A stretch of DNA of 64,000 nucleotides from Escherichia coli (GTDB lineage: Bacteria; Pseudomonadota; Gammaproteobacteria; Enterobacterales; Enterobacteriaceae): assembly GCF_029227855.1 (NCBI RefSeq), contig NZ_CP074356.1; one strand, 5' to 3'. Positions 1,747 through 43,791 of the stretch are shown in pieces. Numbering within the stretch: the stretch's first letter is position 1; every line of letters begins with the position of its first letter. The translations under genes and the position numbers were made by a program. Under the pieces are notes generated by a model. The model made no database searches. It was given only the letters and a program-made list of their open reading frames with translations, and had not been told where the DNA came from.

Positions 1747-3393
1747 ATGTCAAACAAACCCTTTCATTATCAGGCACCTTTTCCACTCAAAAAAGATGAT
1801 ACTGAGTATTACCTGCTAACCAGCGAACACGTTAGCGTATCTGAATTTGAAGGGCAGGAGATTTTGAAAGTCGCACCCGAAGCGTTAACTTTGTTGGCGC
1901 GTCAGGCGTTTCATGATGCGTCATTTATGCTGCGTCCGGCTCACCAACAACAGGTGGCCGACATTCTGCGTGACCCGGAAGCCAGCGAAAATGATAAATA
2001 TGTGGCGCTGCAATTCCTGCGCAACTCCGACATCGCCGCAAAAGGCGTTCTGCCAACCTGTCAGGATACCGGCACCGCGATTATTGTTGGTAAAAAAGGG
2101 CAGCGTGTATGGACCGGTGGCGGTGATGAAGTGGCGCTGGCACGCGGTGTCTATAACACTTATATCGAAGATAATCTGCGCTACTCGCAAAACGCGCCGC
2201 TGGATATGTATAAAGAGGTGAATACCGGCACCAATCTACCAGCGCAGATCGATCTTTATGCCGTTGATGGCGACGAGTACAAATTCCTCTGTATCGCCAA
2301 AGGTGGCGGTTCGGCAAACAAGACGTATCTCTATCAGGAAACCAAAGCGTTACTGACGCCGGGGAAACTGAAAAATTACCTGGTTGAGAAGATGCGCACG
2401 CTGGGTACGGCGGCCTGTCCTCCGTATCATATTGCGTTCGTTATTGGTGGAACTTCTGCAGAAACGAACCTTAAAACGGTGAAACTGGCTTCCGCTAAAT
2501 ACTATGATGAACTGCCAACGGAAGGGAATGAGCACGGACAGGCGTTCCGCGATGTGGAACTGGAAAAAGAATTGCTGATCGAAGCGCAAAATCTTGGTCT
2601 GGGTGCGCAGTTTGGCGGTAAATACTTCGCTCACGACATCCGCGTGATTCGCCTGCCACGTCACGGCGCATCCTGCCCGGTCGGTATGGGCGTCTCCTGT
2701 TCTGCTGACCGTAATATCAAAGCAAAGATCAACCGTCAGGGGATTTGGATCGAAAAACTGGAACATAATCCAGGCAAATATATCCCGGAAGAGCTGCGCA
2801 AAGCGGGAGAAGGCGAAGCGGTGCGCGTTGACCTTAACCGTCCGATGAAAGAGATCCTCGCACAGTTGTCGCAGTATCCCGTTTCTACACGCTTATCGCT
2901 GAATGGCACGATTATCGTTGGTCGTGATATTGCTCACGCCAAACTGAAAGAGCGGATGGATAACGGCGAAGGGCTGCCGCAGTATATTAAAGATCATCCG
3001 ATTTACTACGCGGGTCCGGCCAAAACGCCGGAAGGTTATGCCTCCGGTTCTCTTGGCCCAACGACCGCCGGACGGATGGATTCTTATGTCGATCAACTGC
3101 AAGCGCAGGGCGGAAGTATGATCATGCTGGCGAAAGGCAACCGCAGCCAGCAGGTGACGGATGCCTGTAAAAAACACGGCGGTTTCTACCTCGGTAGTAT
3201 CGGTGGTCCGGCAGCTGTATTGGCGCAGGGAAGTATTAAGAGCCTGGAATGTGTTGAATATCCGGAACTGGGAATGGAAGCCATCTGGAAAATTGAAGTG
3301 GAAGATTTCCCGGCATTTATCCTTGTGGATGATAAAGGAAATGACTTCTTCCAGCAGATACAACTCACACAGTGCACCCGCTGTGTGAAATAA
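1747..3393 (+). CDS. fumA: class I fumarate hydratase (Fe-S), 548 aa
   Basis: ORF track 548 aa [18 protein letters not shown]...; full-length FumA. Confidence 0.96.
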
Positions 3394-3398
3394 ACAGA

Positions 3399-3422
3399 GC
3401 CGCCCTTCGGGGCGGTTTTTTT
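3399..3422 (+). terminator. Rho-independent terminator after fumA
   Basis: GC hairpin gccgcccttcggggcgg followed by a T-run immediately after the fumA stop. Confidence 0.6.
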
Positions 3423-3535
3423 ACATGGCACGAAAGACCAAACATTTGTTATCAAATAGTAAATAATAAGTGAGCTAAAAGTTGCTTAACGAAAGCAAAA
3501 CAGAAAGAAAAAATTAATCAGGTGAGGAGCAGGCC

Positions 3536-7243
<3,708 letters not shown>

Positions 7244-41811: not shown

Positions 41812-41996
41812 TGCCAGCATCCTTTTTGTATCGGACGTAAACGGGCCAGCATTGAAAGAATGCATACTTTATTTAATAGCTCCCGTTCTTGTTTTCTCTT
41901 GTTAATGGCATCTTCAGTAAATACTGGGTTACTGATAGTGACACCAATTTCAAAACAACCTTCAGACGTATTAACGTTTGGTAATAACGTTTTCAT
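41808..41996 (-). CDS. dicB: cell-division inhibitor DicB (62 aa)
   Basis: ORF 41808..42101 (-); start at ATG 41994-41996 preceded by GAGGA; MKTLLPNVNTSEGCFEIGVTISNPVFTEDAINKRKQERELLNKVCILSMLARL... recognised as DicB. Confidence 0.88.
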   Translation of the reverse strand: MKTLLPNVNTSEGCFEIGVTISNPVFTEDAINKRKQERELLNKVCILSMLARLRPIQKGCWQ

Positions 41997-42165
41997 TATC
42001 GCGTCCTCAACAATGAATTTTGTGATGCAGTGCCTGGTGCCTCCAGGTGACGTTAACCAGTTAACAATTAACGTCGGATACAGAGAATCCACCCATAACA
42101 CTGTTTTTGGTTTTAACTGTTCCGCGTGCGCTCAGCCGCATTCACCGCATCACAAAATTCACTTT

Positions 42166-42223
42166 AAAAACGGCGGCAGAGCAGTCACGGAGTAAAACTG
42201 ATACCGCTAAACGTCACCAGAAA
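42166..42223 (-). ncRNA. dicF: DicF small RNA
   Basis: Reverse complement reads TTTCTGGTGACGTTTAGCGGTATCAGTTTTACTCCGTGACTGCTCTGCCGCCGTTTTT, matching the DicF sequence I recall, including terminator stem and U-tail; lies between the ydfC-like ORF and dicB. Confidence 0.85.
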
Positions 42224-42254: not shown

Positions 42255-42446
42255 TCACTTAAGCGTATGGTCAACCTGACAACCCGGTGTCCTCAACGGG
42301 GAAGGAATAACCCCGCCATACTTACCGCCGCGCCATTTCGCGGGTTGCCACAACCGGAAGCGCACGGTCGAATTAAATTTAACGACACCGTACAGTGAGA
42401 CGAACTTCGCCGTGCGCTTTCGTGTTGTGTGCCTGCTTTTAACCAC
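42255..42446 (-). CDS. possible ydfC-like small ORF (63 aa, GTG start)
   Basis: Only positional support (between the ydfB-like ORF and dicF); composition not convincing; a second GTG ORF 42293..42478 competes. Confidence 0.25.
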   Translation of the reverse strand: MVKSRHTTRKRTAKFVSLYGVVKFNSTVRFRLWQPAKWRGGKYGGVIPSPLRTPGCQVDHTLK

Positions 42447-42482
42447 GTCAGGCGAGGTGGTATCCTTAAAATCACCACAGTT

Positions 42483-43058
42483 TTAAGGATTCATTAAGCA
42501 ATGTCGCAACCACCAATAAATCCGCTTAAGAACATGAAAATTGATTACTGGTATAAAGCGCTTACAGTTGTTGGCGCTGCGTTGTTTGTCTTTAATGGAA
42601 CGTCTTTTTTTGACAGATATCCCGTTGTTCCATTGGGTTTTTTGTCCTCCGGCATCTTTTTTATTGGTTTGGGGGAGTGGATTAATCACCCTCTCAAAGT
42701 GAGATTTATTGGTCCTGGAGTTTGGACTCGTGGATATAATCGTTCTTCGTGCGCACTCGGTATCATCTTCGACATACTTGGTTGTTTCCTGATTGTTACA
42801 GGAGTCGTCAAGTTCTTCTGATGTAAAACCGCAAATGGGGCACGTAACGGGAATTTTGAAAAGCGTTTCTCCGGGTTCCAGAACAAAATTTTCTGCGGTC
42901 TGATTTTGCTTCTCATATTTGTGCTCCGCGTCATTGTGAGAGCACATTCTTATTCTGAGTGCCTGTTTAAACTCACTGAAGCTGAGAGCTTCTTCGCCTT
43001 CGGCAAGACCTTCGAAGTATTCTTCGTAAGCCTTTTCCATGATTGTGTCGAAATCCAT
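42483..43058 (-). CDS. ydfB-like ORF, extended (191 aa from MDFDTIMEK...)
   Basis: ATG at 43056-43058, 1 nt after the ydfA stop; N-terminal ~90 aa protein-like (acidic helix, CPICGF); C-terminal half K/R/N-rich and is the codon-for-codon complement of a membrane-protein-like ORF on the plus strand. Confidence 0.4.
   Translation of the reverse strand: MDFDTIMEKAYEEYFEGLAEGEEALSFSEFKQALRIRMCSHNDAEHKYEKQNQTAENFVLEPGETLFKIPVTCPICGFTSEELDDSCNNQETTKYVEDDTECARRTIISTSPNSRTNKSHFERVINPLPQTNKKDAGGQKTQWNNGISVKKRRSIKDKQRSANNCKRFIPVINFHVLKRIYWWLRHCLMNP
42501..42821 (+). CDS. possible antisense 3-TM membrane protein (106 aa)
   Basis: ORF track 106 aa; three hydrophobic segments (ALTVVGAALFVF, VVPLGFLSSGIFFIGLG, CALGIIFDILGCFLIVTGVV); T-rich second codon positions; AAGGA 11 nt upstream of the ATG. 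Shares triplet register with the minus-strand ORF, so only one of the two is likely real. Confidence 0.35.
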   Translation: MSQPPINPLKNMKIDYWYKALTVVGAALFVFNGTSFFDRYPVVPLGFLSSGIFFIGLGEWINHPLKVRFIGPGVWTRGYNRSSCALGIIFDILGCFLIVTGVVKFF

Positions 43059-43059
43059 A

Positions 43060-43215
43060 TCACTCACCTGAGTTTCTTTCCAGCCAGCGACGGGCACCAT
43101 TTTCGGTTTTAAACGTTTTGCTTTTGGTATATGTCATCGCGGTGAACGTACCGTCCTGGTTGGGGAACACGCCACATACCAGAGATTCGCTGTTGCCAAG
43201 ATCGATAGTATCCAT
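43060..43215 (-). CDS. ydfA: DUF1391 small protein YdfA (51 aa)
   Basis: ORF 43060..43269 (-); start at ATG 43213-43215 with GAGG SD; MDTIDLGNSESLVCGVFPNQDGTFTAMTYTKSKTFKTENGARRWLERNSGE. Confidence 0.85.
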   Translation of the reverse strand: MDTIDLGNSESLVCGVFPNQDGTFTAMTYTKSKTFKTENGARRWLERNSGE

Positions 43216-43383: not shown

Positions 43384-43791
43384 TTATTTTATTGATTTAT
43401 TTTTACGCGCTTTAAGCATTTCTTCGAAGAGTTTGTTGAAGTTTTCTACTCTTGCGCGCATTTCAGACAGCAAGGCTTCCTGCTCGGAAGATGGAAGAGC
43501 ATCGAATAATTCGATCAATTCTTTGTGGTTGGGAGTTAGCTCTGTTTCCACATGAAGTTCTTGTGCAGGCACTGGTGCCTTGTCTTCGTCACCAAACATT
43601 AGCCATGTAGGTGAGCACTTCAGAGCATCCGCTAAAGCAAACAATCGTTTTCCGACTGGCTGGGTTTCGTCTCTTTCCCATTGTGAAATTGTGACGTGAG
43701 CAACTCCAGCGAGGCGCGCAGCTTCTCGTTGTGTTAAGCGTAATTCTTTTCGTCGCGCCAGAACTCGCTGGCCTAGGGTTCTTGTATCCAT
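43384..43791 (-). CDS. dicA: HTH (XRE/CI-like) repressor DicA (135 aa)
   Basis: ORF track 135 aa MDTRTLGQRVLARRKELRLTQREAARLAGVAHVTISQWERDETQP... Confidence 0.9.
   Translation of the reverse strand: MDTRTLGQRVLARRKELRLTQREAARLAGVAHVTISQWERDETQPVGKRLFALADALKCSPTWLMFGDEDKAPVPAQELHVETELTPNHKELIELFDALPSSEQEALLSEMRARVENFNKLFEEMLKARKNKSIK

Follow-up and report, generated by a model that had tools for sequence, protein, structure and literature searches.

Background

Long genes that overlap one another on opposite strands are few in bacteria and their phages, and those proposed are disputed, because most of the evidence consists of expression data from a single strain. The closest described systems come from phages and from enterohaemorrhagic Escherichia coli (EHEC). 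In the Pseudomonas phage Fc02 (Beetrevirus), olg1 and gene 10 overlap in antisense within the lysis-lysogeny region; both are translated and both exclude phages, one being carried on the lysogenic transcript and the other being the second early lytic gene after a cro/ner-type gene (PMC9936078). Phage P22 escapes its own SieB by means of Esc and the sas antisense RNA (PMC12197685), while a set of antisense genes from EHEC (ano, asa, pop, laoB and others; Neuhaus/Scherer) has been proposed to reflect overprinting (PMC9927249, PMC5960689, bioRxiv 10.1101/2020.11.18.388249). The present analysis concerns a further pair of this kind, termed X/Y, located in a 64,000-nucleotide stretch of E. coli DNA (assembly GCF_029227855.1, contig NZ_CP074356.1; hereafter the window). 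Gene Y, on the plus strand, encodes a small membrane protein and lies, codon against codon, inside the putative minus-strand gene X of a Qin/DicB-type lambdoid prophage.

None of the SieB/Esc/sas, Fc02 and EHEC pairs is homologous to X/Y. Like the Fc02 pair, X and Y are antisense-overlapping protein genes of an immunity region; however, neither the proteins nor the type of phage is related (Olg1 being soluble, gp10 insoluble), and frame maintenance has not been reported comparatively for Fc02, whereas X/Y is known from sequence comparison. The EHEC genes are likewise long open reading frames (ORFs) embedded antisense in another gene, but the evidence for them comes mainly from ribosome profiling (Ribo-seq) and phenotypes within a single species, and most are young, whereas X/Y has been kept in at least 10 deeply diverged lineages. 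The main text of bioRxiv 10.1101/2020.11.18.388249, the only one of the three EHEC papers that was searched, does not mention the X/Y locus.

With respect to position, sieB of the Rac prophage of E. coli K-12 (L116, 2672-3160) occupies the same slot as Y in the same orientation, antisense to the early-left kil operon, and is convergent with the DUF1391 gene ydaF (a homologue of ydfA) with a 4-nt overlap. Y, too, is a small prophage membrane protein with three predicted transmembrane helices. It is shorter, however (106 aa against the 162 aa of SieB), it gave no BLASTP alignment with Rac SieB and no SieB match in Pfam, PHROG or NCBIfam, and the 7 stops in the same-register antisense frame of Rac sieB contrast with zero in the X/Y clusters. 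A likeness to superinfection-exclusion genes, offered as speculation in a preliminary description of the window, is therefore retained for slot and orientation and given up for sequence. The escape of P22 through Esc and sas provides the logic proposed below for X, with the difference that Esc is encoded in frame within sieB while X lies on the strand opposite Y.

The Qin prophage of K-12 shares the ydfA-ydfB-ydfC-dicF-dicB backbone with the window, including a DUF1391 ydfA, identical residues 1-34 of YdfB, and DicF, but in the window ydfC and the C-terminus of YdfB have been swapped for the X/Y cassette, and K-12 has no Y. Further, X resembles an ordinary shadow ORF in being a same-register frame with a hydrophilic, K/R/N-rich product opposite a hydrophobic gene. 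Shadow frames, however, decay neutrally, whereas the X frame lacks stops to an extent well beyond expectation and is continuous with an N-terminal domain (N-domain) under selection.

An antisense frame kept open across gene Y

Both ORFs of the preliminary description were recovered from the ORF list where it had placed them, and their codon boundaries coincide because their left ends (42501 and 42483) lie 18 nt apart. The antisense frame in this register is the most stop-poor frame, its stops being the complements of TTA, CTA and TCA codons. The Y gene of the window contains 10 leucine and 6 serine codons, none of which is TTA, CTA or TCA, against an expectation of 4.2 from local codon usage (probability of zero, ~0.007); other A-ending or rare codons (ATA, AGA and GGA) are in use. 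For comparison, Y genes were taken from annotated phage records and from loci fetched through viral, genome and contig-look-up scans, the contig scan yielding 16 loci with strict peptide patterns, and were grouped into 22 clusters at 80% identity.

TTA, CTA and TCA are absent from Y in all prophage clusters with the X partner domain (10/10). These clusters share less than 80% amino acid identity, and synonymous sites between them are near saturation (differences at third codon positions, p3, of 0.5-0.75). With each gene's own third-position composition as the null, 2.5-6.3 antisense stops are expected per gene, local codon usage giving similar figures, and the joint probability of zero stops is ~1e-26 if the 10 clusters are independent. 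Within the E. coli cluster, 19 of the 22 variants are without an antisense stop. Stand-alone control Y genes have 1-17 antisense stops, close to the null expectation; the control set comprises Herminiimonas, Desulfobacteraceae, Pseudomonas guineae, Reinekea, Salinimonas, Marinobacter, L066 and L082. Across the 10 lineages the Y frame and the same-register antisense frame alone are stop-free, the other four frames holding 36-112 stops in total.

Co-openness of the two frames exceeds chance in many diverged lineages, and the earlier view of the two ORFs as mutually exclusive had to be abandoned, the X frame being kept stop-free through the antisense of Y in many diverged prophages. Pairwise codon-position divergence gave no sign of purifying selection on X amino acids within the overlap, X being constrained only outside it. 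These comparisons argue that the X frame is under selection to stay open across Y while its amino acid sequence is left free. A plain shadow ORF or annotation artefact was rejected as an account of the minus frame, since stops at the neutral rate are seen solely in homologues without the X N-domain.

Gene Y

Y is a real gene for a three-helix inner-membrane protein of an unannotated family, and it dictates the sequence of the overlap. Sixty homologues, typically of ~100-110 aa and with identity down to 34%, are present in the protein database, in hosts such as Yersinia, Herminiimonas and Reinekea and in many metagenomes. The motifs DYWYKA and GLGEWINHP are invariant in the family alignment (invariant residues Y16, W17, Y18, K19, A20, G56, G58, E59, W60, N62, H63 and P64), and AlphaFold (pLDDT 86.5, pTM 0.73) predicts helices at residues 17-32, 42-62 and 85-105 with a hairpin at 66-78. 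Divergence in the overlap tracks the codon positions of Y (p3>>p1>p2) in every pairwise comparison, with p1/p2/p3 of 0.08/0.08/0.25 between the window and L060 and of 0.10/0.07/0.42 between L088 and L090; the identity of Y is always far above that of the minus-frame translation, X identity being about half of that of Y. Stand-alone Y genes, with motifs intact and a stop-filled antisense frame, occur in Herminiimonas, Pseudomonas guineae, Reinekea, Salinimonas and others. The earlier preference for the plus-strand ORF is borne out by these homologues, by the Y-frame divergence and the AlphaFold model, by T at 42% of second codon positions and by the AAGGA Shine-Dalgarno sequence (SD). The codon-position scoring that had been suggested shows the Y frame governing the overlap and the minus frame governing the X N-domain.

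AAGGA with identical spacing also precedes the TTG start of Y in mEp390 and in Pantoea rodasii. Further upstream, the element TGgTATCCT is kept in L010, L006 and L067, and TTAAAATCAC is shared with L072. The aligned upstream regions point to a promoter that probably belongs to Y itself and runs against the early operon.

PADLOC-DB gave 0 families at E <= 1 for Y and three homologues, the PDB gave nothing by sequence profile or by Foldseek, and Foldseek against AFDB returned uncharacterised Y homologues only. A class I holin was considered and rejected: Y lies in the immunity region, not in a lysis cassette, its C-terminus (VVKFF) has no charged tail, and no holin match was obtained for Y in Pfam or PHROG.

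Gene X and the YdfB chimera

The sequence identifies the long minus-strand ORF as an in-frame chimera, YdfB(1-34)::X. Residues 15-48 of the 205-aa product match residues 1-34 of K-12 YdfB at 100% identity, with no similarity beyond (BLASTP). The comparison with K-12 ydfB and ydfC that had been proposed thus yielded identity over YdfB 1-34 and no similarity to YdfC; full-length YdfB (b1572, 42 aa) was rejected since only residues 1-34 match, as was YdfC (b1573), for which the best BLASTP E value was 17. The earlier label of an extended ydfB-like frame is apt for these 34 residues, and the remainder is a separate conserved gene, X.

In the window, native X has 154 aa from ATG 42947 and ends 15 nt past the Y start codon. 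The K/R/N-richness previously noticed in the second half of the minus-strand product is confirmed, K+R+N amounting to 29% inside the overlap (net charge +9) and to 13% outside it (net charge -9). Across lineages, the minus frame stays open for 111-312 nt further past the Y stop, in the N-domain, whose consensus is E..F.IP..CPxCGF.SEEL in the enterobacterial early-left types and FFE.L...PGSV..D....VTL.GW.LE.F in the early-right types. Here the pattern of divergence flips to the minus frame, with values of 0.35/0.26/0.70 between the window and L060, 0.29/0.26/0.71 between L095 and L089, and 0.29/0.29/0.68 between L072 and L071, and the X N-domain is under purifying selection in that frame. A zinc ribbon was rejected for this domain: CPxCG is found in the enterobacterial types but gives way to GW in the early-right types, and four ligands are not conserved; NCBIfam YnfU and a Lar-like PHROG family scored below threshold only.

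A profile search with X (HMMER) over 1.84 billion representatives gave 132 matches, the top 24 of which span nearly the whole profile (23 are of 146-166 aa and one is of 206 aa). Operon packing is tight: in mEp390, X is gp39 (151 aa) between cro (gp38) and cII (gp40), with gaps of 36 and 16 nt; the cro-X-cII order recurs in L072; and in L088, X begins 1 nt past the cro stop and the following gene comes 4 nt after the end of X. The X of E. coli and Yersinia is found on the early-left side and downstream of the repressor. Good SDs precede the X start in most lineages. In the window, the native ATG 42947 has a weak AAGA only and AGGTGA precedes ATG 43058 of the ydfB fusion, one base past the ydfA stop (43060); ATG 43058 is therefore the likely initiation site there. 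By these features X looks like a real, translated early-operon gene.

AlphaFold predicts X (pLDDT 50.7) to be disordered save for a C-terminal helix at residues 138-152, which is the codon-wise complement of the conserved N-terminus of Y. Among families, X matches phrog_35040 only, which is itself made of identical ORF calls.

Locus organisation, insertion slot and annotation

The gene order in the window is exonuclease, ydfD, dicB, DicF, the X/Y region, ydfA and a DicA-like repressor gene, followed by divergent cro-like and ydaT-like genes; the coordinates are collected in Table 1.

Table 1. Coordinates of the X/Y locus and its immediate neighbours in the window
Feature	Position	Strand	Remarks and source
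Long minus-strand ORF	42483..43058	-	191 codons + stop; 205 aa from ATG 43100 (ORF list)
Plus-strand ORF, gene Y	42501..42821	+	106 aa (ORF list)
Y Shine-Dalgarno sequence AAGGA	42486..42490	+	10 nt before Y ATG
Candidate Y promoter	42458..42472	+	extended -10 TGgTATCCT (42458-42466) and -10-like TAAAAT (42467-42472); by eye from aligned upstream regions
X N-domain	42822..42947	-	native ATG 42947; EPGE..F.IP..CPxCGF.SEEL; outside the overlap
X tail	42486..42821	-	112 codons antisense to Y, same register; K/R/N-rich; stop-free
ydfB remnant, C-terminus replaced	42957..43058	-	34 codons; PGAP pseudogene; BLASTP
Mobile X/Y cassette	42441..42957	.	takes the place of ydfC and of the 3' end of ydfB; left junction 42441-42468 (blastn against L003, L004, L005)
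ydfA (DUF1391)	43060..43215	-	upstream of the YdfB::X chimera in the dicB-type early-left operon; PGAP annotation of identical locus L001, offset 39799
DicF small RNA (sRNA) gene	42171..42222	-	downstream of X, same operon; Rfam RF00039, 64.8 bits, E 2.4e-13
DicA-like repressor gene	43384..43791	-	ORF list; HTH protein in the L001 annotation

The X/Y pair travels as a cassette. Against a prophage with a K-12-like ydfA-ydfB-ydfC order, blastn homology stops at 42440 and returns at 42958, and against two other prophages it breaks at 42467 and at 43072 or 43227; given these breaks, a cassette of ~0.5 kb replaces ydfC and the end of ydfB. The recombination junction lies ~10 nt upstream of the native X ATG and fuses X in frame to YdfB(1-34). 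The slot from ydfA/ydfB to dicF was observed to be a recombination hot spot (window 42441-43072; L004 2168-2755; L005 2144-3562). In mEp460_ev081 and in PPompW/Stx2a phages it holds unrelated convergent gene pairs, in which a small soluble plus-strand protein faces a minus-strand protein of 121-135 aa, and in E. coli CP055976 (L014 4139-4803) the X/Y module, with X fused in frame to ydfC, adjoins a HigB/HigA-like toxin-antitoxin pair and not ydfA.

The conserved element GCCTGCTTTTAACCACGTCAGGCGAGGTGGTATCC (window 42430-42466) contains two overlapping hairpins (GCCTG/CAGGC and CCAC/GTGG) and, on the plus strand, reads as a -35 TTAACC followed by the extended -10 TGgTATCCT. It is assigned to the backbone and not to the cassette, since it is common to prophages with different cargo (L003-L006, L010 and L067), and it may serve as a promoter directed rightward or as a signal for RNA processing. 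Two other observations concern the early-left operon beyond X. A GTG-initiated ORF of 61 codons (42293-42478, minus strand), annotated in HannyBb only, begins 4 nt past the X stop and sits, upstream of DicF, in backbone common to other prophages; and a sub-threshold Rfam match to the sRNA STnc100 (41964-42173, minus strand; 34.5 bits, the gathering score being 47) is located immediately downstream of DicF and extends into the dicB 5' end.

Most of the 1-kb region is present in 791 of 5426 complete E. coli genomes (~15%), and the temperate phage HannyBb carries it at 99% identity. On an identical genome, the sole call of PGAP is a 34-codon ydfB pseudogene missing its C-terminus, the remainder being left empty; the 205-aa minus-strand ORF is called in the HannyBb annotation and in phrog_35040, and the plus-strand ORF is uncalled in both annotated records inspected (PGAP and HannyBb). 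A literature search returned no account of the X/Y locus, of mEp390 gp39 or of the Y family.

Informative variants

Nesting is the common state of the pair, and several variants depart from it. In L066, X stops after CPICGFTSE, 9 nt into the 3' end of Y, so that the pair is convergent and non-nested, and Y has 8 antisense stops. The flanking ORFs in this locus (2560-6326), which by their motifs may be AbiH-like (GNGFDL) and DUF2971-like, suggest a defence-island-like setting. In L082, X is absent, and Y, with 9 antisense stops, lies antisense within a cro-cII-O operon.

Shortening is seen in L114 and L115, in which an X of 80-81 aa, consisting of the N-domain and the C-terminal helix, lies between cro and cII opposite a single-helix mini-Y of 33-35 aa (MENPLSKLALDYWYKVLIVAGTALIIFGIIKLF); an in-frame deletion of ~73 codons has left both frames open. 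Such miniature nested pairs are rare (L114 2592-2837; L115 3001-3243; L117 1468-1719), and a search for further short forms of X gave only two lineages. The X C-terminal helix after loss of Y could be compared in a single pair of short forms, with p1 0.39, p2 0.25 and p3 0.42.

In P0178 and P0215 the X N-domain runs into other C-termini, which suggests that it is an independent small domain; its partners include the C-terminal part of a 294-aa ORF, which adjoins X in L088, and an unrelated 60-aa tail. Each gene can occur alone, as both Y-only and X-only lineages were found. Both kinds of case that the preliminary description had named as decisive between its two ORFs exist: Y is intact and the minus frame broken in L059, L066, L082 and the stand-alone Y genes, and X is kept with Y deleted or shrunk in L114/L115, P0178 and P0215.

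Working model and alternative explanations

The reading we favour, and regard as probable, is that X/Y is a mobile module of a dicB-type early-left operon, made up of two real nested antisense genes with the X frame kept open, for which a SieB-type working model can be drawn up. Transcribed against the early operon, Y would be made in the lysogen or during its establishment, and convergent early transcription after induction would silence it, while X would be made early in lytic growth. Y would act in the lysogen as a SieB-type membrane effector of exclusion or abortive infection, with X as the counterpart that acts early in lytic growth, X transcription silencing the Y mRNA and X protein perhaps neutralising Y already made. 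Selection in the overlap acts on the amino acids of Y, and on X only for openness and, by consequence, on its C-terminal helix; nesting would keep X and Y inseparable during the mosaic recombination of phages.

The early-right phages have the Y start ~60 nt away from the cII start codon, with Y reading through cro in the direction of cI. This layout of Y, cII and cro is the geometry of lambda PRE, and by analogy a CII-dependent establishment transcript may have Y as its first gene and extend through anti-cro into cI. In early-right phages of the L034 type (L072 3930-3961, L095 2440-2470), a TTAAAAT or TTAGAAT before Y overlaps the X stop, with the cII start in the -35 region.

Several points weigh against the favoured reading. 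One stop interrupts X in 3 of the 22 E. coli variants; a strict sigma-70 consensus scan found no Y promoter, and no promoter or terminator for Y rises above background; Y matches no Pfam, PHROG, NCBIfam or defence family; and L066 and L082 demonstrate that nesting is not obligatory. X is fused to neighbours in both E. coli variants (to YdfB in the window and to YdfC in L060 and L014), which, together with the weak native SD, looks like a sloppy arrangement. The tail of X has no amino acid conservation, is predicted to be disordered and may be functionless as a peptide. Moreover, it is comparative evidence that suggests translation of X through Y, and position and analogy that suggest an exclusion role for Y.

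The alternative that survives best, although we consider it doubtful, is that X is translated but its tail peptide is functionless, the open frame merely letting ribosomes cover the early transcript across Y; this would prevent Rho-dependent polarity or attack by RNase III on the X/Y duplex, and would allow coupling to the next gene. An unconstrained yet stop-free tail is what such ribosome transit would leave, early-right X ends 4-22 nt before the next gene start, and in L066, where no co-oriented gene lies downstream, X does not extend beyond its N-domain and Y has its 8 antisense stops. However, the Y of L082 lies antisense within an operon with 9 antisense stops and no X, and on the early-left side X is followed by 260-285 nt of untranslated RNA (in the window from the X stop at 42483 to DicF at 42222; also in L011), so that anti-polarity was set aside as the sole cause of the open frame. 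The deletion forms, moreover, keep exactly the N-domain and the C-terminal helix, which points to a protein function for the X C-terminus, and a role of the open X frame as a spacer leading to a functional C-terminal helix is favoured by these forms.

A more specific version of the proposal, which we think unlikely as it stands, holds that X and Y are an effector/antidote pair encoded on opposite strands, X protein binding Y and X transcription silencing the Y mRNA. On this account, the C-terminal helix of X would have arisen by overprinting on the antisense of the Y N-terminus.

There is only a slim chance that Y alone is real and that the minus-strand ORF is a ydfB pseudogene remnant running on as a shadow ORF. 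PGAP calls nothing here but the ydfB pseudogene, the overlap conserves the amino acids of Y alone, X is predicted to be disordered, and the same-register antisense frame is inherently poor in stops. Yet zero stops occur in 10 diverged X/Y lineages against the expected 2.5-6.3, a figure of the order seen in the controls and in sieB. The minus frame also remains open for 111-312 nt beyond the Y stop, where it encodes a domain under purifying selection in that frame, and SDs, a conserved length and close packing within operons speak for X.

Equally improbable, in our estimate, is an arrangement resembling type I toxin-antitoxin systems, in which Y would be a membrane toxin, the complementary early transcript would control the Y mRNA, and coding on the minus strand would be incidental. 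Y is small, hydrophobic and fully covered by a convergent transcript, the mini-Y of L114 and L115 has a single helix in 33-35 aa, and DicF and other prophage antisense regulators are nearby. Yet Y, a 106-aa protein of three helices whose cytoplasmic hairpin is conserved, exceeds type I toxins in size, stand-alone Y genes occur without an antisense partner, and neither the frame-specific avoidance of stops nor the conserved X N-domain is explained. As a class, type I was rejected, its members having a toxin of less than ~60 aa with a single helix and a non-coding antisense RNA, whereas here the antisense strand is coding.

Lastly, that the minus-strand ORF alone is real and the plus-strand ORF its shadow, as the annotations of HannyBb, phrog_35040 and mEp390 gp39 imply, is almost certainly wrong: phage annotators do call the longer minus-strand ORF and in the protein database the 205-aa call is far more numerous than the 106-aa call, but divergence in the overlap tracks Y, the identity of Y always exceeds that of X, Y occurs alone with motifs intact opposite a stop-filled antisense frame, and AlphaFold folds Y confidently and not X.

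Significance

On the comparative evidence, X/Y is a rare and well-supported case of an anciently conserved, nested, same-register antisense gene pair. To a field of few and disputed examples it brings comparative evidence with a natural negative control, namely partnerless homologues that gain stops at the expected rate. A previously unannotated family of membrane proteins has been uncovered, and annotation pipelines either miss Y (PGAP, PHROGs) or call the opposite strand only. Since the X tail appears to be kept open while its sequence is left free, the requirement that a frame be translated can be separated from the requirement that it have a particular sequence, and each gene can be knocked out through a mutation that leaves the product of the other unaltered. 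If the effector/antidote reading were true, the locus would provide a natural and anciently conserved instance of functional partner proteins encoded sense and antisense to one another.

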